DNA of 63,723 bases, filler included, from Reclinomonas americana ATCC 50394 (GCA_048213135.1; 16 parts of 16 records of this genome joined end to end with filler, not necessarily neighbours in it); one strand, 5' to 3'; shown: positions 1,484 through 60,700, counted from the whole stretch's first letter. Notes: generated by a model from the letters alone, not told the origin. Translations and numbers: made by a program.

Positions 1484-4400
1484 TCAGAGAAGGGGACAGC
1501 CCGGCTCCTCAGAGGTGAAGTTGGGGTGCACTGAGCCGAGAATTCGCTGCAGTAATGGACTTCCATCAGTTACCCGCCAGATGTTAACTGAACAGCCAGT
1601 TGTTCGCATAGCGAGCCCGGCAGCAAGGGACGTACGCGGCAACATGCTCTGGAGATAGTCCCACATAGTCCGACGCGTATTAAGGCGACGACCTCGACGA
1701 ATGAACACTACTGCCCCTGGACGACGCACTTCCATGCCAGACTCTACTGACCACACACGCACAGCGACGTCGGCAGCTTTGCTCACGATGTACTGACCAT
1801 CGAGAGTGATAGCGACAGGGTTCACAAGCCAGTTACGTCGTTTCAAACGTCGCACTTCCTCTCCGTTCGCCAGTGACCACATCCGCACGGTATTGTCTCG
1901 ACTCCAACTCCAAATGTGTTGACTGTCACGAGTGACAACGACAGAGCGCACCCGGGCAGTGTGTCCATGCAACTGTCGCACTTCTTCCCCATTAATCACT
2001 GACCACACTCGAATTGTCTTGTCATGACTCCCGCTCACAATGTGCTGACCGTCGGGAGTAATCGCAACGGATGACACGTCGCCAGTGTGGCCTTCCAGTC
2101 GGCGCACTTCTTCCCCACTCGCCAGTGACCACATTCGCACGGTGTTGTCTCGACTCCCACTCACAAGGTGCAGCCTGTCGGGAGTGATGGCGAGAGAAGT
2201 TACCTGCTGAGAGTGTCCCTCCATCCGTCGTACCCCATCTCCACCTTTTAAAGACTGCACACGCAATTCACAGTCGTCCCCTCCGCTCACAACATACTGC
2301 CCTTCGCGGGTGAAAACAACAGAGTGCACCACACAAGAGTGTCCCTTCAGCTGTCGCAATTCCTTCCCACTCATCAGTGACCACGGTCGCACTGTCCCGT
2401 CGCCACTGCTGCTAACAATGTGCTGCCCATCGGGAGTGATAGCAACAGACAGCACTGCGTCAGTATGTCCCTCCAATCGTCGTACCTCTTCTCCAGTCGA
2501 CAATGACCACACGCGCACTGTGTTATCCTTGCTACCACTCACGATGTACTGGATATCGGGCGAGACAGCAACACAATACACTTCGTCGGTGTGTCCATCA
2601 AACCGTCGCAATTCTTGTCCACTCGCCAGTGTCCACAACCTCACAGTACGATCCAAGCTCCCGCTGATAATGTGTTGACCATCGGTACAAACGACGACGG
2701 CAGACACAGCACCGGCATGCCCCACGACAACTCCCACTCCTTGTCCTCTCGCAAGTGGCCACACACGCACTGTCCAATCATCGCTCCCACTCACTACATG
2801 CTGACCATCGGGAGTGATGGACACGGACAATACCTTCCCAGAGTGCCCGTTGAACTTCCGCATCTCCTTGCCACTCGCCACAGACCACATACGTACTGTC
2901 TTATCCTGACTACCACTAATGATGTGCTGACCGTCGGAAGTAACAGCGACACACTCGACCCTGTCAGTGTGCCCCTTTAACCGTCGCACCTCCTCGCTAC
3001 TCGCCAGAGACCACACACGCACTGTGCAGTCATTACTCCCACTCATTAGTTTTGACCCGACGGTGAATGTGACAGGATGCAGCTCCTTGACCCTTGACCC
3101 TTAACCCGGGGGCCCCTACCCTTGACCCTTTGCTCTTGACCGTTGGCTTCCTGGGCCCTTGACCCTTAACCCGAGTGTGGGGCAAAAGTTGTGTCTTGCG
3201 CAAGTCGCGAAATGTAAGTAGAGACTCCGATTTGCATGACCAACTGTCGCAGTGCATCTTCACATTACTAGATACAATGTGCTGGCCATCTGTCGTGACA
3301 GCAACACATCTCACAATCCCGGTATGACCTTTCATCGGCTTCCTCGGCCACTTCACGCCCGTCAGCTTTGCCCTACTGAAATTCGCCCCACGCGCATACG
3401 CCATGCACACATTCACCCCCCGCATATCCGCTCCTCTCCACACTGTCCGGTGCATCACCGCATCCCTCAAATCCGCACCCCTCACTCGCACACCCGACAG
3501 ATCTCGCCCACTGAACGACACTTGTGCCACACACAACACTGTTGCTGCATTCGCCGCCGCAGTCACCACTCGCTCCTCATCCATCTCCCGTGACATCTCA
3601 ATCACCTCCCACAATCGCGCTTGCAATGCAAGAGATCGTCGAACCACCTCGGCCATTTGCTCCACCATCGATGGTCGATCATTCAGTAATCGCACCGACA
3701 GCACATGCTGCTGCACATCCAGTATCGTCAATCTCCTCCCCTCATCCCACGTCTCCCATGCAAACACATGCCGTGCCACACAATGTTCCAGCAACGACAG
3801 TTGCACGAATCCCCACTGTGTCCTCCCATACCGTCGCACAATCGGACAGCACACACGCACATGCCGAAATCTGCCACCAAAGAACTTGTCAAACGGTACT
3901 TCTTCCACTCGCTGACGATCGACTGGTGCACCGCCGAACTCGTTTGCCTCTTCGCCATTCGCTCGGTCATCATATAATGCTCGCACAAGATTCTCCCTAT
4001 GCATCAAACGCGCCAGACCTTCACAGAAGGCGAGGCACGTTTCCACAGTCGGCACACGCTCCGCACCAAGACGCGTCTGCCTCTCCTGCTCCCTCTCAAT
4101 CCATTGCCGAATGAATCGGTCATACACGTCATACCGAGTCGGTCGCTCCCTAAAGTCACTCGTCACCAGTTGTGGCAGCACCTGCACCACCACCGACAGC
4201 ATGAATGGATTCGCGATCAACAGTTGCACACCATGCAATCCATGCAGTGCATGCTGATACTCATCCACTGTTTGCCATTCCGCCGATTGGTACGTGACAA
4301 AGAGACACAGGTAGTCATCGATCTGAGTATCATTGAATGGTTCCACAGTGCGTTCCACCAAGACCTGCAAGTCCGCACGTCCACTACTGTCTGTGGGAAC

Positions 4401-6204
4401 AAAGAAGCGACGGTAGTCAGTTCCTCCCGAACCCATGCCGGCCGCGTAATCTGCACGACAAGTCACAATCACTTTGACATCCGTGCATCCTCGGAGCTGT
4501 TTGCGCACATCCATCAATCACCGTCGGTCAAGTGCGAAAGGGGGAGAGACGAGGAGCGAGACGAGGAAGCAAACCTGCGCCGTGTCCATCAGATTGATCT
4601 CACGGTACAGCTCATCGTACCCATCCAACAACAGCAACAGCGGCGATTGCTTGACGCGCTGCACTGCAGCCTCCGGCCACGTCACTGGTAGCACTTCTTC
4701 CAGCATGCGATGCTCCACATCCTGCAACGCTGACAACGGCACACGCAGTGGCAGCCGCCGACTCCGTCCCTCTCGATACGCTCGCCACAAGTGATCCGCC
4801 ATCACCGTCAACGCAGTTGTCTTGCCAGCCCCACTGTTGCCGAGGAACAGCAACACGCGTGCGCGGCTATCATCCGCAATGAAAGCATCGACCTCCGACA
4901 AAAGATCACGTGACTCGCTACCTACAGTTGTCAGCAGTGGCACGTACATCTGTAGCGTCTTGCGCAGGTTGTCGTCATCACGGAATGCCAATGACTCGCT
5001 CTCGCTGTAGCTTTCGAGGAATGCAGTGAACGCAGCACCAGATATCCCTTGCCGCCCTGCGAGAGTCGAGTGTTTCTCTCGTGAGGGTGCGGAAGTGGAA
5101 TACAGCAGACGCACAATGTGATGAAACTTGATCGATTATCTTCCAGCAAGGCACGAAAGTGCGCGAGGGGGGCATCACCGAGCTGGAGTGCAGAGATGGC
5201 CATCACCAGACGCCCCTCAAGAACACCATCGCCAAGTAGGTCAGTGACTTCATCGGCGTTGGCGACAGAAGGATGGCGGTGGGCAAATGAGTTGCGAATG
5301 TCACGCAGCGTCTCTATCGCTCGACGCTGCGCGTGAGTGATGAGCAGCATGGCAAGCAGCGCGAATAGAGAGCAAGCAGCACACTGACCTCCTCATCTAA
5401 GGCGAGAAGGAAGTGGGAGCTCCCGTCAGCTTCCACGATTCCTCCATTTACCAGAATTGCGCAGAGTGCGCTCAAGTCGAATGGTGGGCACGGTGGTGTG
5501 CTTGTGGGATCCGCATCGAATGCTGTTTTCCAGGTGAGCACATGAGCTCGCTGCTCATTGTGCTGCAAGAACGCGTAATTGCCGCCGGGTTTGTAGCTGC
5601 GACACACCACTATCAGAACCAAGAGGCAGAGGAAACAACACCAATCACCACCGTATACGTACCGCGCAGGAATCTCTCGGACAGTCTTGCAGCACCACGC
5701 CTCGTCGACACGCATGGTGGTATGCAGGCGGCAGAACACAGGCAGCGCTGCGCGGAGTCGAGCGGCCAGTGCGTCTCTGACAATATCCATGGCACCTTGG
5801 AGAAGGTTGTAATTGTTCGTTCTTCACGCACACACGTACACGCTGCGGATGAGACGCACATCTTCTCCTCTTTTCCATCTCAAACACACAAACAACGCAC
5901 CCACTGCCCTCAACATCCACCGTCAGCGTGGTTTCCGCCGATATGCCAAGTTCTCGCACTGTTGACGAATCTGACAGCAGCAGCACCACATCCGACCGCA
6001 CGCGCACACGCGCATCCGGAGCGACACCAAGCAGGAGCAAGCCGCGTTGCACAAGGTGACACAGTCGCGTGTCGCCAGTGATGTCGGCGACTGTGGTGCG
6101 TGCGGTGCCGTCAGCGAGGAGAAAGTGGACAGAGAATGACTGCACGCCAGTGAGTTAGAAGAGTGGCTGACGAGTACGTGTGTGAGGAGACACAGACGCA
6201 CCAT
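1484..6204 (-). CDS. NLR-like STAND protein: ubiquitin-like domain, HEPN (DZIP3/Swt1-like), NACHT, pentapeptide repeats, WD40 array; frame interrupted near 3045-3265
   Basis: Inferred exons encode M|SFSVHFLLADG...TVRELGISAETTLTVDVEG (Ub-like); NNYNLLQGAMDIVRDAL...FDLSALCAILVN...IETLRDIRNSFAH (HEPN RxxxxH at 5279-5296); Walker A GNSGAGKT (4818-4841); Walker B LLLLLDGYDE; VIVTCR; AAANAATVL followed by pentapeptides (DLSGVRVRGADLRDA); about 11 WD40 repeats of 42 aa in ORF 1484-3046. GT-AG introns can join the N-terminal exons in frame. Confidence 0.8.
3085..3172. repeat. Telomere-like 7-mer cluster (CCCTTGA/CCCTTAA) inside the NACHT-WD40 gene
   Basis: CCTTGACCCTTGACCCTTAACCC at 3085-3107, CCCTTGACCCTT near 3119 and CCCTTGACCCTTAACCC at 3156-3172. 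Confidence 0.7.
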
Positions 6205-6440: not shown

Positions 6441-7529
6441 CTACCACCACACGCAAGACGAGTAAAAGCACAGAGCCTCCGCCTCCTCGACGATAAAACA
6501 CCGAAACGCAATCTCGGCCAAGCAGCGTGGATCCTCCTCCTCCTCCCCCTCCCCCCGCAGCAGCATCTCCTGCACGGCCAGCATCGCCAACCGCGCTCTA
6601 CCCAGCTCCTGCTGCGCGAGACTGCGTGGAGTGCACCACACTCGCAACGTGCAGTCCAGACCCCCGCTCACAATGTGCTGACCATCCGGGGAGAGGGCGA
6701 CACCGCGCACCGCCCCAGTGTGCCCCTCCAGCCGCCGCACCTCGTCGCCACTCGCCATCGACCACACACGCACAGTCTTGTCATCCCCGCCGCTCACCAC
6801 ACACCGATCGTCGGCGGTGAATGCAACAGACCGCACCACACCACTGTGCCCCTCCAACCGTCGCACCTCCTCGCCACTCTCCAGTGACCACACTCGAACA
6901 GTCTTGTCCGCGCTTCCACTCACCATCCACCGACCGTCGTGAGACACGGCGACCGACAACACGTAGAACGCATCGCGCGCTTGCATCTTCCGCACCACTT
7001 CGCCACTCGCAACGCGATGCATCCACAGAGTGCAATCATTGCCGCAACTCAGAGTGTGCTGGCCGTCGGGGGTGACAGCGATGGAGAACACGCAGTCGAA
7101 GCCGCCCTTCATCTGTCGCACTTGTTCGCCACTCGCAAGAGACCACACGCGCAGAGTCATGTCCACACTCCCACTCACCACGTGCTGACCATCGGGGGTG
7201 ACTGCAACAGCAAACACAGAATTAAGGTGCCCCTCCAGCCTGCGCACTTCGTCGCCACTCGCCATCGACCACACTCGCACAGCCTCATCGGTGCTTCCGC
7301 TGACGACATGCTGGCCATTGGGAGTGATGGCAATACACATAACATCTTCAGTGTGTCCCTCTAGTCGGTGCACTTGCTCGCCACTCGCCAGCGACCACAC
7401 GCACAGTGTCTTGTCGCCGCAGCCACAGACAATGTGGTCACCATCGGGCGTGACGGCGATGCAGAGGATACCACCAACGTTTGTTTGCAAGACCTGTGCT
7501 GGGCATGAATAATGAACTTGAGAAGGCAC
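6441..7529 (-). CDS. WD40-repeat protein (about 7 repeats, same repeat family as the adjacent NACHT gene); 5' end uncertain
   Basis: ORF with repeated GH.....VAVTPDGQHVVSGS.D.T.RVWS.ASG.EVRRLE units and a short non-repeat C-terminal tail. Confidence 0.85.
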   Translation of the reverse strand: MPSQVHYSCPAQVLQTNVGGILCIAVTPDGDHIVCGCGDKTLCVWSLASGEQVHRLEGHTEDVMCIAITPNGQHVVSGSTDEAVRVWSMASGDEVRRLEGHLNSVFAVAVTPDGQHVVSGSVDMTLRVWSLASGEQVRQMKGGFDCVFSIAVTPDGQHTLSCGNDCTLWMHRVASGEVVRKMQARDAFYVLSVAVSHDGRWMVSGSADKTVRVWSLESGEEVRRLEGHSGVVRSVAFTADDRCVVSGGDDKTVRVWSMASGDEVRRLEGHTGAVRGVALSPDGQHIVSGGLDCTLRVWCTPRSLAQQELGRARLAMLAVQEMLLRGEGEEEEDPRCLAEIAFRCFIVEEAEALCFYSSCVWW

Positions 7530-7661
7530 CTGTTGCCTCTTTTAAAAGGAGACACACACACCCGCGCTGCCATGTCGTACGTAGTTGCTTGAGTGAAAGA
7601 CAAGTAAAGGGGATGTGGGACCGAAGGACGTCGTACTCTTGCAAGGCACTCAAGGAAGGAG

Positions 7662-7800
7662 GGTGGGAGGGTGGAAGGGTGGAAGGGTGGAAGGGTGGAA
7701 GGGAGGAAGGGTGGAAGGGTGGAAGGGTGGAAGGGTGGAAGGGTGGAAGGGTGGAAGGGTGGAAGGGTGGAAGGGTGGAAGGGTGGAAGGATGGAAAGGG
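7662..7800 (+). repeat. (GGAAGGGT)n G-rich tandem repeat abutting a gap
   Basis: About 17 near-perfect copies of an 8-mer. Confidence 0.9.
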
Positions 7801-8280: not shown

Positions 8281-10661
8281 ACCTCCCGTGTACATGTGCA
8301 GCGCACTGTCCTGATACCGCGTCAACTCCTCGGCCGACGAGTCAAAGAGGAATCGCGACAAATTGACGAGGTTACCGGTGGCGCCGTGCAGCACATCCGT
8401 CTTGTAACATCTGCAGGCAGCAAATGTGTTAAGAGCGCTTGTCTTTCCGCAGCGAAGCGAAAGAGATAAACGCCACCTCACAAACAGATCCAGCACCGAG
8501 GGATTCAGTGGACCGCCCGCTCGATCCTTCCATTCGGCATTGGCGACCTCCTCCGAGAGCGGCAGCGGTGGATCCGGGAACATGCTCTGCAAGTCCTCCG
8601 GCGCAAAGCCGAGAGCCTCGTCCTTGAACACGAATACGGTTGTCTCGTCGGCATCCAACTCCGAGGCGGCACTGGCTGCACGGGTGGGAGAAGTACATGA
8701 TAAATGAGACAAAGGGAAAGGGAAAGGGAGAGGAAAGGGAAAGGGAAGGGAGGAGAGTAGAGGGAAGAGAGGGACTAAAGGAAGGAGAGGGAGGAGAGGG
8801 CGGAGAGGAAGAGGAAGAGGAAGAGGAAGAGGAAGAGGAAGAGGAAGAGGAAGAGGAAGAGGAAGAGGAAGAGGAAGAAGACGAGGAAGAGGACGAGGAA
8901 GAGGAAGAGGAAGAAGACGAGGAAGAACACGAGGAAGAGGAAGAGGAAGAAGACGAGGAAGAAGACGAGGAAGAAGACGAGGAAGAAGACGAGGAAGAAG
9001 ACGAGGAAGAAGACGAGGAAGAAGACGAGGATGAGGAAGAGGAAGGGGAAGAGGAAGAGAGAAATGACAGGTGAGTGACAGACGGATGGAGAGACTGAAA
9101 GGCGCAACAGAAGGAATGAGAAAGAGAAGGCCAAGATGAAACGGACGAGGCGACGCGTGATTTGAGAAGAGAGAAATACAGTACAAAAGAGAGAGGGAAG
9201 GGCAGACTGGAAACTAGGGAGCCAGAAACAGCAAGGTCTATGTGCGTCAGAGAGACAAACTCCACCTGCTGACGAAGAGGAGCCCGCCAACCGCGGTCCC
9301 AACACAATCTCCTCGGGCTCAAACACAAACGGCAGGGCGTCGGCCACACTCAGATCAGCCAGCGGATGCGGCTGAGGGACGACAAAATTCGGGCTTCGTA
9401 ACCGGCTGCGGAAGGAAGAAAGGTTGATTGAGGAGGCAGGAGGATGAGCATCTTGGCAGAGTCTGTGCGCGTGCACACGAACCCCGAAGCTCGCCTCTCG
9501 CGCAACAACGATTGCTGTAGCCGCGAATGTGCAGTTGCCGGGGACGGTGAGGCGCCGGCAGAGGACGACGCCGCCAGCGCGGAGGAAGCAGCAGCAGGAG
9601 GGGGAGGAGCAGCAGGAGCGGGTGACTGCCCAACCGTGCTGGCGCCATCGGTCGACGACTGCGAGGGCGTCGGCGATGGCGAGGCGGCAGAAGGGGGATG
9701 CGGCGGAGGCAGTGTCGTGGGTCGGCGCGGCAGGTCGCGCAAGCCGACGGGCGGGGGTGGAGGTGGTGTCGACGGGGGTGGTGGGGTGGCGAAAATGAGT
9801 GAGGCGTCGAGGGACATGCGACGGAAGTGCATGGCGGCTTCGGCGGCGTCGTAGGGCACCACGCCTTCGGTGAATACTTGGGCTGCGAATGAGCAGAAGG
9901 GGGGAGATTAGAGGAAGGGGAGGAGACGGAAAAGGGGGGTAAAAGGGAGAAGGGATAAGAGAGAGAGGGAGGTGGATGGTGAGGGAAGGGGAGGGAGGGA
10001 GAGGGAAGAGGGAAGAGGGAAGAGGGAAGAGGGAGAGGGAGAGGGAGAGGGAGAGGGAGAGGGAGAGGGAGAGGGAGAGGGAGAGGGAGAGGGAGGACAA
10101 TGGATACATAAGGCAAGGATGTGGGCGGGAAGGAAAACAGCATCGCAAGGAGGATGGTGAGAAGAACGAATGGACGAGAGCGGAATTGATGAGGTTGGCG
10201 AGGGACAGGAGGCAACCGAAGTAATCGGTTCATCATAGACATACAGAGTAAGGCTTCGAGAGGAGAATCAACGAGATGAGAGCGAGGGTGAAGGAGGTGA
10301 GAGGATGGAGGGAACAAGGCATGTACGAGGCAGAAGAAGTCAGGCTTCTGCTCACGCATTGCTTTCCTCACTCGTTGTGTCTTTGTTTCGATCTGCTATC
10401 ACCATAGCGTGTTCCATCCAATGTCGCACACTCGTCGCCATTCACACTCGCTTGTCTCTCGTCTCTCGTTCTGTCGCTTCCCGAGTCTCGTTCCTCAAAC
10501 CCTTGATTCTCTCTCTCCCTGTCTCTCATTCATTCTGAGTCTCTCTCTCTCTCTCTCTCACTCACTCACTCACTCACTCACTCACTCACTCTACTGTTCT
10601 CAAAGACTAGCTTTCTCACGCTCACCCTCTCCACCATTGTGCCTTCGCATCCTTTCTTCTG

Positions 10662-30944: not shown

Positions 30945-31198
30945 CTGGGGGGGGGCGTGAGGGGAAGGGAGGGGGAGGGGCAAGAGAGGGGAAGGGAGTG
31001 AGAGGGGGGAGGGGAAGGGGGGATTGGGGGGAAGGGAGGGGTGAGGGCATAAGAGGAGGCTAGGGAGGGCGGAGATAGGGACAGCACTCCTCTCTCGCNN
31101 NNNNNNNNNNNNNNNNNNNNNNNNNNNNNNNNNNNNNNNNNNTTAATTAATTAANNNNNNNNNNNNNNNNNNNNNNNNNNNNNNNNNNNNNNNNNNNN

Positions 31199-34100
31199 GG
31201 CAAGACCACGCTGGCCGAGCTGATTGTTTCGGAGATGGAGCGCAAAAAGTGGCGCGGGTCGGCGCTCTTCGCCGATATTCGTGGTCACACTGCCGAGGCG
31301 CACATGTTCACACCGGTAAGTCTGCAGTGGGTGGGCTACACCTGCATTGACGCTGTCCTTATATGCACGCGCACAACGCACAGACAGCTGACGTATTCGG
31401 AAGCGGATTGCGTGGATTCGCCAACGCCATGCCGTCGGTGCAGTCCCGTGCGCAGTTGTTCGCTCAAGTCGACACGTGGGAAAAGGATAGTAATGTCGAT
31501 ATGCTGCGAAAACATTTGGGAGACTACATGCACGACAGTCGCGGCGTCTTGCTGCTGGACAATGTCGGCAGCGGTGAGCAAGTGCTGAATGTGATTCGAG
31601 CAGCACCTGTGCGAGGTCGACCTCATCCTGGTGAGCGCGCCGGTAATAGCATGATGCGTCAACCTGCCTCACGTAGTTGTGCGTAGACATGCATCGCTCG
31701 ACGGCGCCCATGGTGATTGTGACGACTCGGTTTGGGCGTGTTGCAGCCGAACTGCAGCGGTCGCCGTTGTTGAGCGCGGCGACGGTCGTCCATGTGCTCG
31801 TTGGCGATGTGGAGGTCGATGATGTGACGGCGTATGTGCGGCAGGAGATTGATGCTCCAGAAGAGATCTCTCTTGAGGTGGCGCAAGCGACGGCAGCGCA
31901 ACCACAGGCATTTCGCGTGGCGCTCTGTTTAAAGTACGTACTTGTGGTATTGTGTTTAGGGCGTGTTCATCGTCTGATGACATCAAATCTGTATCCGCAG
32001 CATGCTTGCGCGACTGTCACTGGAAACGCTGGCGAGTGACGCATTGCAAGAGCGCCTGACCGAGACTCGAGTGTCGGCTTTGGAGCAGCTCATGGACAAG
32101 AATTTGGCCGAATGCTCGCTGCTGATGCGACAGGTGCTGTTCTTGGTCGCAGCGCTGCAGCAAATGCGCGTATGTTGCACGAGCCGCACTGTGACATTGC
32201 TGGTGCGGTTCCTGGGGCGCGAGGTGATCCCAGAAGCAGAGGATCAGCTGGAGTTTCTGTTGTTACGATTGACGATACAACGAGCACTGGGAATACATAC
32301 CGACGACTGCAATGGCGACATCGACGAAGACGTGACGAGCGCGCTTGAATGGCTTCGTCGATCCATGTTGGTACAAGCCAAATCATCGCATTCATGTGAT
32401 GCTGTGTGCCGGATGATGGCTGTTGGGGATTCGGTCGCGTTTTCCTCTCGAGTGGAGTACCGAGTGCACGACCTTGTGATGGAGTGGCTGGAATCGGGAG
32501 AACGAAGACGCCAGCTGCCTGTTTGTCGAGATGTCGTGTCTGACGTCGTCATGTGTGGTCTGGCGCAGGCGACCGATCACAGTGTTAGTGAGGATATGCT
32601 CACGGACCTACGCCCGTGTTTGCAAGTACTGTGGAGCGGCTTGCTGTCCGTGATGCATCGCCGTTGGAATTGGAATGCACTGGCGAGTTTGACGATGAAT
32701 ATGCGGCTTGACGGTGTTGTGCGGTTGGCGCGCCTGGTGGAGAAACGTTTGCCTGATGCCGACTTCAGTGTGGAGGTGGCGGTTGCGTGTGCTGAATGGC
32801 TCCGTGAACATTTTGCCGACCAAAATGACCGAGATTTTCTGCATCGCAAGGCAAGATGTGTGGCGGCGCTGCTGACAAGTGCACGCCGATACGGCGAGGC
32901 AGTCGGCCTTCTGGAGGCGCATATGCAGACGGTTGAAGTTGGAGACGACGTGGGATTGGTATCGGCATTGCGACTGCAACTTGCTGACTGTCTCGAAACT
33001 GTTGGGCGAGTTCACAGTGCCGAGCAATTGTATCGGGAAGTGTTTTCGATGAGACGTGAAACGCTTGGTGAGAAGCATCCAGGCACGCTTGTTTCTATGA
33101 ATAACCTCGCCAATTGTATTCTCGCGAGTGGCAACGTTGTCGAGGCCTAGAAATTGTATCGGGAAGTGTTGGTGCTCATGCGCGAAGTGCATGGGGAGCG
33201 GCATCCTGACACGTTGACGGCCACGAGCAATCTCGCTGACTGTATACATTCAAGAGGCAACGTCGCCGAGGCCGAGCAACTTCATCGAGAGGTGTTGGCG
33301 GCAAGGCGCGAAGTGCTTGGTGACAAGCATCCCGACACGCTGTGTTCCACTAGCAACCTTGCAAGTTGCATTCACGCGAGCGGCGGTCTCGCCGAGGCCG
33401 AGCGACTGTTTCGTGAAATGTTGGCTGTCGCACGCGACGTTTTCGGTGAGAGGCATCCGTGGACGCTGGCGTCCTTTAGCAAGGTTGCCAGCTGCGTCGA
33501 AGCGAGCGGTAATGTTGCTGAAGCTGAGCGATTGTATCGAGAAGTGTTGGCTGCAACACGCGAATCTCTAGGGGACAGACACCCAAGAACTTTGGGATCG
33601 ATGAATAATCTTGCCAACTGCATCCAAGCAAGCGGCAATCTTGTCGAAGCGGAGCGACTGCACCGAGAGGTGTTGGAGATCACACGCGAATTATTTGGCG
33701 ACAGGCATCCACATACACTTGCGTCAATGTGCGATCTCGCCATCTGTATTCAAGCGAGCGGCAACTTCTTGGCAGCTGATCGATTGCATCGCGAGGTATT
33801 GGCGTTGAGGCAGGATGTGCTTGGCAGCAGACATCCTGCAACGCTGGGGTCCATGAACTGTCTCGCATATTGTCTCCGCCAGAGCGGCAAGTATTCCGAA
33901 GCTGAGCGACTGTATCGCGAGGTGTTGGCGCTTAGGCGCGAGGTGCTCGGAGAAAGGCATCCAGACACGGTGATGTCGATGAACAATCTCGGAGACTGCT
34001 TGCGCGAGAGTGGTAACCTCGTTGAAGCCGAACCCTTGTGTCGGGAGGTGTTGGCGTTGACACGAGAAGTGCTTGGATACAAACACCCACACACGCTTGT

Positions 34101-34558
34101 GACCATGAACAACCTTGCCTACTGTTTGCGGAAAAGCGGCAATCTCGTGGAGGCCGAGCGACTGCATCGTAAAACTCTAGCATTGCAGCTTCAAGTGCTC
34201 GGTGACAGATATCCACAAACGCTTGGATCAAGGCACAATATCGCTCTCTGTGCCAGCAACGACGGCCGATTCACAGAGGCCGAGCCACTGTTTCGCGAAG
34301 TGTTGGAGCTGAGGCGCGAGGTGCTTGGTGATAGACACCCGCAGACTCTGACGACGATGAACGAGCTTGCCTTTTGCGTCCACGCGAGTGGCAACCACGT
34401 TGAAGGCGAGCGACTTTGTCGGGAAGTGTTGGGGTTGAGATGGGAGGTGCTTGGTGACAAGCATCCGGACACGCTGACTTCCATGAGCAATCTCGCTGGT
34501 TGCATGCAAGCCGGTGGCAATCTCGTCGAGGCCGAGCAACTGTATCGAGAGGTGTTAA
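31199..34558 (+). CDS. NB-ARC-like STAND ATPase with kinesin-light-chain-type 42-aa TPR array; in-frame TAG at 33148-33150 (possible pseudogene or truncated allele); both ends in gaps
   Basis: GKTTLA Walker A end at the contig start, Walker B GVLLLDNV, VIVTTR, YRVHDLV (MHD-like), then 12 repeats of EAERLYREVL..RREVLG..HP.TL.SMNNLA.C...SGN. Confidence 0.88.
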
Positions 34559-34958
34559 NNNNNNNNNNNNNNNNNNNNNNNNNNNNNNNNNNNNNNNNNN
34601 NNTTAATTAATTAANNNNNNNNNNNNNNNNNNNNNNNNNNNNNNNNNNNNNNNNNNNNGGCGGAGTGAGTGAGTGAGTGAGTTCTGTGTGTGAAAGAGAG
34701 TGTAGTCTGTCGGAAATGTCCGCGCGCACACACACAAGCCGCCCTCTCTCTGTGTGCGTGGTGTGTGTGTATGTGTGTGCGTGCTGTTGTGATTGCACGT
34801 GGCGAGGGAGGGAGACCCGGTTTGCTCAATCATGTTGTGTTCAGTCATGAGCATTGTGTGACCAAAGATGGAGAGAGAGAGAGAGCGCACGAAGAGTGCC
34901 TTGCCACTCCTTTCCACTCGTTGCTGACCTCTGCTTTCTCCTTTTCTCCTTTTGATAG

Positions 34959-38462: not shown

Positions 38463-39817
38463 TTACATCATCATTGGTGGCGGTGGTGGTGGTGGTGGTG
38501 GCGGAGGCGGAGGCGGTGGTGGTGGGTAATCCATGTCGGGAGGCGGAGGTGGTGCCGGGAACCCATAGCCTGGCGCCGGTGCCGCGTGCTGCGGCTCTTC
38601 ACGCATCTTGAAAAAGAGTTGCAGCGTAAACACATGCTCGCTGCGATCCCAGTTGGTGTAGAAGCGGCCGTCGCCCTTGTCGATCTCCACGGCGGGAATC
38701 TTGAATGCCACCGTCTCGTACGGCTCGGCGGCGAACAGCAGGTACTGGTAGCGCTTGTCGGGCGGCTCCAGTCGCTGCTCAAACGACGACATCATGCGGT
38801 GGCGCGGGTGTGCGGCCTCGTCAATGTCGGGGTAGTAGATCTGGAAGAGGAGCGAGCGTTGATTCGTGTCGGGATCGCGCTGCTTGGTGACGCGGTAGCC
38901 GGGGCGGCCGATTTTGACGGTGCGGCGCACGGGGCGGGCGGTTGATGTCATTGGCATGACCATGTTGGCCTGTGGGGGAGGGGAAAGGGTGAGGAGAGGG
39001 AAAGGGGGGAAAGCGTGAGGCGAGGGAGGGAGGGGAGGGGAGGGGAGGGGAGGGGAGAGAGAGAAACGAAGCAAGGAAGCAAATGAACGGCGAATGCAAA
39101 GGCATTGGGAAGGCAGAATGATGCACAGCAAGTCAGACAACAAGCAAGTCAGGAGCAGACAGCAGAGATCAAGAAAGCGACAGAACGATGAACACTGAAT
39201 GCACGAGTCCATCCAGACGGCAGAATGACGCAAGGAGGCTGAGGCCCAGAGCAGGCCACAGAAACGACACGGGAGACATAAAGCAACACGAGCGTGCAGA
39301 GCAGAGTGGTAGACGGGATGAACCACACATGGAAAGTGAAACAAGACGGGCAAACGAGGATGCAGGAGCGGGAGAGAGAGAGAGATCAAGGGCAGGCAGT
39401 GCAGAAACAACTGCGCATGTAAGAGCCTCACCTGCTTCTCCTTGGCCTCCATCGCCTGCCGTCTGGCCAAATTCAACTGATGTCTCTTTCCCTGCGTGTG
39501 CGCCAGATAGTTTCCCTCATTCGTGTGCAACGTCAGGCACAGCTTGCACTCGTACTGGCCGAGGTGATTGCGCATAAAGTACGGATCCTTGGTCAAATCA
39601 ATCGTCTCCAACGCCAATCGCCGCAATCGCTCGCGCCGGTCCACATTGGCGTCGCTCTTGGAGAGCAGCCCACCGGCTCCGGGCTTACTCCTGCACACTC
39701 ACACACACACACACACANNNNNNNNNNNNNNNNNNNNNNNNNNNNNNNNNNNNNNNNNNNNTTAATTAATTAANNNNNNNNNNNNNNNNNNNNNNNNNNN
39801 NNNNNNNNNNNNNNNNN

Positions 39818-40301: not shown

Positions 40302-43996
<3,695 letters not shown>

Positions 43997-57725: not shown

Positions 57726-60700
57726 CTAGGTAAGGTCGGGCCGCAGTGACCAGCGACCGTTCTGCAGCTTGGCCACACGCTGCAGCATGGCCTTGAAGAG
57801 GGCCTTGTCCTTGCCCATGCTGCCGACACGAGGCTCAAAGTGGTCGATCAGGTCCTGCGTCGGCACGCCCACGGTGCCATGATCGACCATGAATTGGCGG
57901 ATCTCGCCGGCCAGCGTGCTCGGATCCACACTCCACTGCATCCGGGCTGCCGACGTCGCTTGCATGGACTCGACACTGGCAATGGTGGTCTGAGAGAACG
58001 AGAGAGGGAGACGGAAGAGTCAGCCATTCGAAAAATATCAATACTCGATGACCTTCCGTACCTTTTCCGCCTGCTGCTGGTAACCAGCCAACACATCTGC
58101 GCTGGTGAGCGATGTCGAACGAGTGCTGCTCAAGCCTCCAGCACCGGCAAACAGTTGGTCGTCCTGGTCGGGAGGGGGGGGGGAAGAATAGGAGTAAGAA
58201 TGTAGGAGCAGCGAGGAGAGTCGCAAGAACGCCATTGTCGCAACTTGCGACATTGGTGACGGCGTCGACAAGGACGGCGACGGCGAGCTGCTGGTGCGTG
58301 ATATGACTGACGAGTGGACCGGTGGGGCCGAGAACACGGGTGGGGCCACGTGCTTCTGTCCGAATCGCGGACGGTTCGGCGCGCCTGCGGCTCCCGAGCG
58401 ACCGGTCCACGTCGGCACTCCCATGCCAGCAGAACGCACCGTCTGTCGACTTTGTCGGAGTGCAGTAGCCGCCTTTTGTGCGGCCGCTTTCGCTGCGCCC
58501 ATCGTGCTCAAAATGTGACTGCCAACGACGACGATGAACAGTGACGACGCACCCTCCATCTCTACAATGATGCGTTCCGGCTGAGCGGCCGTCAACACCT
58601 TGTCGTGCGAGACGACAGAGTGCACGCTGTTGCCCTCGAGAATGCGCTTGAGAATGTTGGTTTCGCTGGCCGCCGCCGATTTCCTGTGCGCACACAGTCA
58701 GTGTCAATCACTCACCTCAGTCCTCGACCAATCACCACTCAACTTGGAGGAAGCCTTCTTCTCCAGCGGCGCACCTCCATCCACGCCTGCAGGTGCCTTT
58801 TCTCCTCCTTCCCCCTCCTCACCTTCATCACTGCACGGTCAATGGCGAAAAGATCAACAAACACTGACGACCGGTGCGAGGTGACGTGAGACGAAAGCCA
58901 CGCACCCGACGTACTCCTCCACGGCACACACCCCGGCCACTTGCGCCACACCATCAGTATCGTTGGCTGGCCGACGGAATACGGCTGCACTCGCCTCCAT
59001 GGCGGCCATCGCACGACTCACGGCCTCGGCTCGTCTCTTCTGCTCCACTTCCCGATGGTAGCCAGGTCGACGTGGAGCACGCGGACCACGCGGCTTGGCG
59101 GCTTCTGCACTGGCCGCTGCGTCGCCACTGCCGTCGTCCTTTTTCTTGGCAGACGGAACCCACGACGTCGCAACATAGTCCTCCGCCGCCTCCACTGCAC
59201 CTCCTCCAGCAGGCGGTTCAATCTCCTGCACATCCGGCACCTCCATATCTGCTGCTGCTTCCTCTTCCTCCTCCTCCTCCACCGCCGCCGCCGCCGCCGC
59301 CGCCGCATGCCGCTCGGACATGCGCACCGAGCGTAGACTCGAGCGAATGGCTGTGGAGGGAGGGGTGATAAGAGATCAGAAGCCTGCACAGCACTGACTG
59401 CCGATCGCACCTTCCTCGACTTGATCGTCCTCTCCCGACGAGTCGTCGGAATCGAGCTTGACGCCGGCTTCCTCCAGCAACTTGCTCGTCTCCGTCTTGT
59501 CGTCGTACTGCGTGCCGAGGGTGAACAGATCACGAATGTCGTGCGACTCAAAGATGCGCTTCTGTCGCGGGTCGTCCAGGATCTTCTCTGTCAAGAAGTG
59601 CTTGAAGATCTGTCGATGGTACATCTTCTCCTCGATGGTGCCGGCAGTGACCAATCGGTAGATGGTCACATCGCGTCGCTGACCCAGTCGCCAGGCGCGC
59701 TCACGTGCCTGCATGTCCACCGATGGATTCTGCCGACGAGAACACAAGAGGGGTCAGCGACACGCAAGCGAGCCAAACGTCGACGCGCAGAAGCATACCC
59801 AGTCGGGATCGTAGAGAATGACGCGATTGGCGCCGGTAAGATTGATGCCAAGACCACCCACACGGGTGGTGAGCAGAAACACCTGGATGGAGTCGTCGTT
59901 GTTGAACTCGTCGACCAGAGGAATGCGCTGGCCAATGGGCGTGTCACCATCCATGCGCCGGAACGAGTAGCCGGCGCGCGCCACCATCAATTGCAGAATG
60001 TCGAGCATCTGCTTGGTCTGCGAGAACAGCAGGATGCGATGCTTCTCTTCGGTCCACAGACGCAGCAGTTCGCGCACGACCACCATTTTCCCGGAGCGCT
60101 CAGGCTTGCCGTACTTGTGCGGCTGCGAGCACTCAAAAGAGTGAGTGACCTGTGCAGAGCAAATCAAGCATACGCGGAAGCAAACCAGCGCCATGCGACT
60201 CTCGAGGTACAGCAGGTCGGGGTGGTTGCAGATCTTGCGCAGCACGGTGAGAGCGTGGAAAATCTTATATCTGCCCTCCAGCACGTCCTCGACTTCTTTT
60301 GATTGCAGATACTCGCGATAGATGCCGGCCTGATGGTCGGTGAGCTTGCAGAAGAGCACCTGTCGGTGCGATGAGAGTGAGATATGCGTGTGATGACTCT
60401 GACTGGTCGCTGCACTCCACAAACCTGCTCGTTCTTCTGCGGCAATTGCGACAAGACGTCCTTTTTCACACGTCGCAGCAGGTACGGATTGATCAGATCG
60501 CGCAACACCAGCGCACACTTGTAGGCCACTTGCACTTGCTTGAAGGTGGCGTTGGAGAAGCCGCCGAGTGAAATCGGGATGGCGAACTNNNNNNNNNNNN
60601 NNNNNNNNNNNNNNNNNNNNNNNNNNNNNNNNTTAATTAATTAANNNNNNNNNNNNNNNNNNNNNNNNNNNNNNNNNNNNNNNNNNNNGGAGTCGCACCG

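Follow-up and report, generated by a model that had tools for sequence, protein, structure and literature searches.

A predicted NLR-type NACHT–pentapeptide–WD40 receptor gene in Reclinomonas americana with candidate ubiquitin-like and HEPN-like N-terminal domains

What does an intron-bearing locus of the protist Reclinomonas americana encode, and what sits in front of its predicted sensor? We analyzed one strand of 63,723 nucleotides (nt), filler included, from strain ATCC 50394 (GCA_048213135.1), in which 16 parts of 16 records of the genome are joined end to end. We refer to this whole stretch as the window, and positions are counted from its first letter. The locus at 1484..6204 on the minus strand is predicted to be one intron-containing eukaryotic gene for a NACHT–pentapeptide–WD40 receptor of the NLR type (NOD-like receptor, with NOD the nucleotide-binding oligomerization domain). 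It is a real and probably intact NLR-like gene. We lean slightly toward a fuller reading, in which a receptor of the STAND (signal transduction ATPases with numerous domains)/NLR type would comprise a ubiquitin-like (Ubl) module, a divergent, helical HEPN-like RNase (about 180 residues, motif R-N-x3-H), a NACHT domain, a helical region, a pentapeptide solenoid, and about 12 WD40 units. An earlier note on this DNA had proposed a Ubl-HEPN-NACHT-pentapeptide-WD40 protein. Its NLR/STAND layout (N-terminal extension, NACHT, pentapeptides, and WD40) in a spliceosomal eukaryote stood up, whereas the Ubl and HEPN heads are plausible but unconfirmed.

The NACHT–pentapeptide–WD40 core and its relatives

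All three parts of the core passed their Pfam thresholds, in agreement with the earlier note. The NACHT domain (PF05729, a STAND family) scored 36.3 bits (cut-off 26.7; E = 6.5e-9) over positions 1 to 100 of the 167 in the profile, in the open reading frame (ORF) at 4518-5135, with the match on exon 6 of the gene model described below. The remaining part of the domain is in exon 7 and was not reported separately by Pfam. Pentapeptide repeats (PF00805) scored 31.8 bits against 20.2 in the ORF at 3033-4517, which also contains the first WD40 unit. NCBIfam pentapeptide models matched as well, with E values of 8e-5 and weaker, all under their cut-offs. WD40 repeats (PF00400) were found in nine stretches of the ORF at 1484-3100, with 308.6 bits against a cut-off of 27 (E = 4.3e-95). 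In the spliced model, the WD40 array has 12 unit anchors, 11 of them at an exact spacing of 42 residues. The units follow a strong consensus with variation concentrated in a few columns, and unit 7 and the last two units deviate from it.

NACHT domains have a Walker A motif of the form GxxGxGK[ST], a Walker B motif of the form hhhhDGxDE, and a sensor-type arginine after a beta strand. We read all three intact from the minus strand: Walker A as GNSGAGKT (4841-4818), Walker B as LLLLLDGYDE (4640-4611), and the sensor-type arginine in VIVTCR (VTCR at 4466-4455).

The 411-residue product of exon 7 matched 18 longer proteins. The top four shared the whole core, with 25-29% identity over 81-97% of the query, and the other 14 matched the pentapeptide segment only. 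Two of the top four have the source name Entomortierella chlamydospora (P0001 and P0002, each 29% identical over 92-97% of the exon-7 piece), one is a JGI protein, and one is labeled 'Phypoly_transcript' (P0004). Pfam analysis of these four proteins found that the NACHT-pentapeptide-WD40 order is kept and that the heads differ, being ARM-like in P0002 and TIR in P0004. Between about residues 320 and 1226, across the intron-6 junction, the spliced model is collinear with P0002 and P0003. Its residues 1-290 had no match among the 19 proteins compared, save for one spurious fn3 repeat protein considered below, and a metagenome scan with the NACHT core found no relative. This is a familiar pattern in NLRs, whose NOD and sensor form a conserved chassis while the N-terminal modules are exchanged. 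The predicted polypeptide would have the tripartite NLR layout of effector, NOD, and repeat sensor.

Candidate domains at the N terminus

A helical domain precedes the NACHT domain. It is divided over three exons in two reading frames, exons A (5663..5795), B (5389..5596), and C (5128..5326), and searches and fold models were made with single exons or with A and B joined through the in-frame intron. The two motifs that the earlier note had reported here are both present, with RNSFAH in exon C at precisely 5296-5279 on the minus strand and FDLSALCAILVN in exon B at 5481-5446. FDLSALCAILVN may resemble a motif of the DZIP3 family, a likeness that is no test of membership. R-N-S-F-A-H agrees with the HEPN motif, which is Rx4-6H, usually with a polar residue after the arginine. 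HEPN domains are all-alpha bundles in which this motif opens a core helix, and their dimers act as metal-independent RNases. The asparagine after the arginine carries the weight of the motif because RNx3H is rare by chance (expected about 0.01 times in a composition estimate over about 190 residues), and Rx4-6H without that residue should turn up more than once. An asparagine at this position is typical of published HEPN-NACHT proteins (PMC9646362).

When exon C was compared with 24,736 Pfam models, exactly two families were reported, RiboL-PSP-HEPN (E = 0.1) and HEPN_Swt1 (E = 0.21), each of them a HEPN family and each sub-threshold. The ORF at 4931-5392 gave another sub-threshold match to HEPN_Swt1 (E = 0.017), and this stretch includes five intron-coded residues. 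Exon B had no Pfam match, and its best Atlas score, 0.75, was uninformative. A single-sequence AlphaFold2 model of A+B, without exon C, contained helices only. DSSP assigned helices to residues 2-25 and 32-40 of the exon A piece and a helix over FDLSALCAILVN. The mean predicted local distance difference test (pLDDT) score of this model was 40. Nothing was found when the N-terminal exons were compared with PADLOC and NCBIfam. A search of the PDB by sequence gave no match for A+B and one unrelated match for exon C (E = 0.7), and tblastn of exon C against plasmids gave five weak, unrelated matches. On balance, we consider that the helical domain of exons A to C probably belongs to the HEPN superfamily, with the motif and the two sub-threshold families pointing that way.

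Upstream of exon A, exon 2 (5860..6139) encodes a 93-residue ubiquitin-like candidate with a short linker rich in cysteine and basic residues. In the Atlas, it was near the ubiquitin, Rad60-SLD, and TUG-UBL clusters (0.90-0.93), with a recognition value of 2810, above the 2300 mark. The best match among 177,635 distinct PDB sequences was the 73-residue chain 8bs3_B, with query residues 18-74 aligned in register to chain residues 13-67 (E = 0.89, sub-threshold). This chain was deposited as '40S ribosomal protein S30' and presumably corresponds to the ubiquitin-like FUBI portion. A Foldseek search with a poor model of exon 2 (pLDDT 42) gave no match at an E value of 0.001 or better. A 93-codon open frame is unremarkable in itself, and many antisense frames in the region exceed 100 codons. 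The Ubl segment ends in ...EGSG, followed by the Cys-rich linker. Because there is no C-terminal Gly-Gly tail, the Ubl, if real, would be built in and non-conjugatable. That exon 2 is a coding Ubl-like module joined to the remainder of the protein seems to us somewhat probable.

Gene structure and neighborhood

A stop-to-stop frame listing of the minus strand from 7000 to 1000, a stretch without an N run, had open frames chained in changing phases from 6154 to 1484. A scripted spliced model begins with ATG at 6204, ends with the stop at 1484, and encodes 1,379 amino acids in eight exons with zero internal stops. Its seven introns are all GT-AG and frame-keeping, and introns 1 to 6 are 62, 64, 66, 62, 71, and 78 nt long. 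Plus-strand open frames over the gene matched no Pfam family. We infer all of the exon joins from this frame-preserving GT-AG model. The spliceable exons of the earlier note were confirmed as a possibility by the six introns of 62-78 nt, but the seventh restores no normal WD unit.

All of the following features are on the minus strand. The coding part of exon 1 (6202..6204), the candidate start codon, would be ATG alone, with the donor GTGCGTCT directly after it. An upstream exon must supply the start because the Ubl frame, which meets a stop at 6157-6155, is without its own ATG. No AG other than the one ending intron 1 (6140..6201, 62 nt, GTGCGTCT...GTGCAG) lies between that in-frame stop and the point where the Ubl frame begins. 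Intron 2 (5796..5859, 64 nt, GTGCGTCT...CTCCAAG) is one of 24 frame-compatible donor/acceptor pairs, and its 8-nt donor is identical to that of intron 1. Exon A, where the helical domain starts, contains an alternative ATG at 5790-5788 in a gccATGG context. It is followed by intron 3 (5597..5662, 66 nt, GTACGT...TCGCAG), in which the codon score is negative in all three sense frames. Exon B, with FDLSALCAILVN, and exon C, with the candidate catalytic motif, are separated by intron 4 (5327..5388, 62 nt, GTCAGT...GCGCAG), and the unspliced frame there stops at 5314. Intron 5 (5057..5127, 71 nt, GTTTCA...TCGCAG) leads to exon 6 (4575..5056), which encodes a linker and the N-terminal half of NACHT with both Walker motifs. 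The model aligns unbroken to P0002 and P0003 over the junction at intron 6 (4497..4574, 78 nt, GTTTGC...AAACAG). Exon 7 (3264..4496) encodes the remaining NACHT sequence with VTCR, a helical region, the pentapeptides (about 3566-3357), and the opening half of a WD40 unit. Next comes intron 7, or else a decayed spacer, at 3086..3263 (178 nt, or 181 with the next AG) with a phase-0 GT-AG pair. The last exon (1484..3085) encodes the WD40 array, a degenerate last unit, and a tail, with the stop codon at 1486-1484.

Codon usage trained on the NACHT and WD40 exons scored the proposed frame best of six in all four N-terminal exons, with exon A near zero. The octamer GTGCGTCT is rare in the window, with seven copies on both strands, and three of these are on the coding strand within the 5' 1.1 kb of the gene. 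Two of the three (6201 and 5859) coincide precisely with the donors that keep the frame at introns 1 and 2. The third, at 5114 on the minus strand, is 13 nt inside the proposed intron 5. Its position suggests an alternative donor, which would pair with an acceptor at 5011 or 5005, stay in frame, and alter about 16 linker residues.

For comparison, a gene for an SNF2-type helicase in the window (Helicase_C, E = 1.9e-19) has a homology-anchored 69-nt GT-AG intron at 59730-59798 on the minus strand. This intron splits ...YDPDW from NPSVDMQ... and ends in GGCAG. The DPDW|NPS junction lies inside a conserved SNF2 motif. Because the helicase intron is 69 nt long, is GT-AG, and ends in GGCAG, the proposed intron sizes and acceptors appear typical of the genome.

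The spacer at 3086-3263 on the minus strand contains about 12 copies of a 7-nt tandem repeat (CCTTGAC on the plus strand), with the repeat at 3085-3172. AGTAATG flanks the spacer on both sides (3269-3263 and 3037-3031), and the 3' end of the spacer still codes for WD-like strands. No second copy of the sequence at 3040-3275 was found within the window. The interruption at 3031-3269 looks like unequal recombination or decay between two WD units rather than a clean intron.

Directly upstream of the gene, head to tail with it, is a second WD40 array (6441-7541, minus strand; seven WD40 stretches, E = 1.8e-68). The stop of this upstream gene is about 237 nt from the proposed ATG. Toward the N terminus, its sequence disappears into an 8-nt tandem repeat (7660-7796) and an N run. 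Farther away, at 31151-34614 on the plus strand, is a long TPR_12/TPR_10 array (E = 4e-126, NPHP3-like TPR) in a gene that begins at an N run. Ahead of the array we read stretches resembling a P-loop (GKTTLA) and a Walker B motif (VLLLDNV). Pfam gave no NTPase match on these short pieces. This gene would be a candidate second STAND-type gene in the window. The window also encodes, at 38463-39698 on the minus strand, a zf-met finger and an SF3A2/Prp11 domain (E = 7.5e-37), which are about 190 residues apart in one frame, and a Cef1/CDC5 Myb_Cef domain at 42334-43209 on the plus strand (E = 2.4e-23). Because SF3A2 and Cef1 are spliceosome genes, they confirm a nuclear eukaryotic origin. Tandem repeats in the window include a 194-nt unit (1.8 copies, 676-1030), an 8-nt unit (17 copies, 7660-7796), and a 12-nt unit (21 copies, 8711-9059). 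The 1,320 N bases are mostly in short runs that appear as 15-16 X in translations. Large parts of the region from 8 to 31 kb consist of low-complexity frames without Pfam families.

Competing readings, proposed mechanism, and known systems

A number of results weigh against the Ubl-HEPN-NACHT-pentapeptide-WD40 reading. No HEPN family reached its cut-off in the single exons scanned (HEPN_Swt1, 15.9 and 12.3 bits versus 27.5; RiboL-PSP-HEPN, 13 bits versus 28.4). PF18738 (DZIP3-like) did not match exon A, B, C, or A+B at E values up to 10, in scans whose HMMER filters remove most matches above about 0.1, and we do not assign the domain, split over three exons, to the DZIP3 family. A phmmer search of 1.84 billion representatives with A+B returned a single, spurious match, an fn3 repeat protein that aligned through a short repeated stretch. 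Word-seeded searches against longer proteins found none for A+B at E values up to 0.01 and none for exon C at E values up to 10. The fold model of A+B is too poor to use as a fold test, and a bare Rx4-6H is expected by chance about 1.5 times per 190 residues of this composition. Exon 2 had no Pfam match at threshold and none to the ubiquitin family (PF00240 and kin). Its AlphaFold2 model had strands only, with no helix modeled. It shares 149-164 Atlas features with the named clusters, fewer than the 170 that true members of a family usually have in common. The gene model has weak points too. Exon 1 supplies nothing beyond ATG, the reading frame does not force the splicing of intron 3, which stays in frame and contains no stop, and the donor of intron 5 (GTTTCA) is weak. 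The ATG at 5790, in a strong context, would yield a Ubl-less protein. At intron 7, a regular WD unit of 42 residues is restored by no GT-AG pair, and even the best choice yields a malformed hybrid. The HEPN label in the earlier note, plausible but unconfirmed, is left with the Rx4H motif with asparagine after the arginine and the two sub-threshold HEPN families of exon C. Likewise, its beta-grasp-like segment keeps the Atlas look-alikes and the in-register PDB match, but no Pfam family at threshold and only a low-confidence model.

These results bear on two other readings of the N terminus. The same NACHT–pentapeptide–WD40 receptor might have a helical head that is not a HEPN RNase but a lineage-specific adaptor or some other helical effector, with RNSFAH a coincidence. 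In its favor are the missing profile match at threshold, the lack of a match to PF18738, and the lack of a detectable relative, and the ARM-like and TIR heads of P0002 and P0004 indicate that this position accepts many kinds of domain. However, RNx3H should be very rare in a region of this size and composition, and the only two families that Pfam reported below threshold for exon C are both HEPN. We regard a non-HEPN head as unlikely, if well worth bearing in mind. The Ubl exon could also be outside the protein, with translation from the ATG at 5790 (MDIVRD...) and with 5860-6139 as a 5' leader or a chance open frame. The gccATGG context, the many open frames of such length in the region, and the failure of Pfam, the fold model, and Foldseek to identify a Ubl all agree with such a start. 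Against it are the ubiquitin-family look-alikes and their recognition value, a top PDB match that is in register, an exon 2 frame with the best codon score of six, and identical 8-nt donors at 6201 and 5859 that permit an in-frame join. We think a Ubl-less start rather unlikely.

The other two alternatives concern the gene as a whole. It might be a decaying gene or a pseudogene, with its WD40 array broken by the repeat-bearing spacer at 3086-3263 and its last units degenerate. No GT-AG join rebuilds a normal WD unit there, the unspliced frame stops at 3033, and unit 7 and the last two units are off consensus. However, each of the eight exons reads open in frame, Walker A, Walker B, and Rx4H are all preserved, and a phase-0 GT-AG pair spans the spacer. 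We think decay improbable. Finally, the protein could be a housekeeping or signaling scaffold with no part in non-self recognition or cell death; some NACHT-WD40 proteins are not known to act as immune receptors. Against a scaffold are the highly regular WD units that vary at few positions, the effector-type N terminus that varies among relatives, and the second WD40-array gene and the candidate P-loop-TPR gene in the window, and we give it very little credence.

If the Ubl-HEPN-NACHT-pentapeptide-WD40 reading is right, the WD40 and pentapeptide repeats might keep the NACHT module shut as long as no ligand is bound. Binding would trigger nucleotide-dependent oligomerization of NACHT, which would pair the N-terminal HEPN-like domains and so form composite Rx4H active sites. 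The paired domains would then cut RNA, leading to cell arrest or death. The Ubl, as a non-conjugatable, built-in module, might tune turnover or recruit partners. The triggered oligomerization, the RNA cleavage, and the abortive-infection or immune role are all what we infer by extension from the domain order. A bolder proposal, which we consider doubtful, is that this eukaryotic NLR, from outside the animals, has as its death effector a very divergent HEPN RNase behind a built-in Ubl. Recognition of the ubiquitin type (turnover, docking, or decoy) would then control an immune receptor that cuts RNA, and the gene would represent a third lineage, one using the NACHT-pentapeptide-WD40 core, that links bacterial HEPN-STAND systems and animal HEPN-NACHT expansions.

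The general design is not new. Table 1 of PMC3710099 names DZIP3-type HEPN domains joined to NACHT and to further immune domains, and it includes HEPN-family expansions in Nematostella, oyster, and Capsaspora. The pearl oyster has >50 NACHT proteins with N-terminal HEPN and also has NACHT proteins with C-terminal TPR or WD40 (PMC9646362). Anthozoans have 17-83 HEPN-NACHT proteins per species, and in several cnidarians NACHT is paired with HEPN more often than with any other non-LRR domain (PMC8260672). Bacterial HEPN-STAND proteins occur in predicted conflict systems (PMC3710099 and PMC8195603). HEPN-NACHT proteins and NACHT proteins with C-terminal WD40 had been described in bivalves and cnidarians (PMC9646362, PMC8260672, and PMC3710099), and the earlier note overrated the novelty. 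A Ubl-HEPN tandem before a NACHT-pentapeptide-WD40 core was not found in a non-exhaustive literature search or in our sequence searches. If the head domains are real, the gene would extend HEPN-armed NLRs beyond animals, add a Ubl-HEPN tandem, and provide a compact case in which to ask whether STAND receptors generally act through oligomerization-driven HEPN pairing. If they are not, it would be one more NACHT-WD40 gene with an orphan N terminus.

How, then, does the predicted protein compare with known systems? RNase L, Ire1 (both with KEN-type HEPN domains), and Las1 are HEPN RNases that are activated by bringing two domains together. Induced dimerization of this kind is the mechanism that we propose by analogy here. 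The sensor modules of RNase L and Ire1 are, however, an ankyrin-pseudokinase and a kinase, respectively, and the likeness is one of proposed mechanism. The DZIP3/hRUL138-like HEPN-NACHT proteins of bivalves and cnidarians (PMC9646362) have an N-terminal HEPN-type domain with Rx4H and asparagine after the arginine ahead of NACHT. The gene studied here differs from them in having no exon that matches PF18738 and no detectable sequence relative, in its pentapeptides and Ubl-like exon, and in the non-animal relatives of its core. It shares NACHT and highly regular WD40 repeats with few variable positions per unit with the fungal HET-E/NWD NACHT-WD40 non-self recognition proteins (PMC1805685). In contrast to HET-E/HNWD proteins, its N-terminal exons match no HET or other fungal N-terminal family in Pfam, and it has an extra pentapeptide segment. 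Sacsin (PMC3710099) also has an N-terminal ubiquitin-like domain and a HEPN domain in one polypeptide, but there the HEPN domain lies at the C terminus, the center of the protein holds Hsp90-like and DnaJ modules in place of NACHT, and its role is that of a chaperone, not a receptor. Bacterial HEPN-STAND proteins (PMC3710099 and PMC8195603) join an N-terminal HEPN domain to a STAND NTPase; they are prokaryotic, with other STAND clades and repeats and no Ubl. The NACHT-pentapeptide-WD40 proteins P0001, P0002, and P0004 have N termini that are ARM-like (P0002) or TIR (P0004), with no counterpart to residues 1-290 of our model, and their core has the same order of NACHT, helical region, pentapeptides, and WD40.

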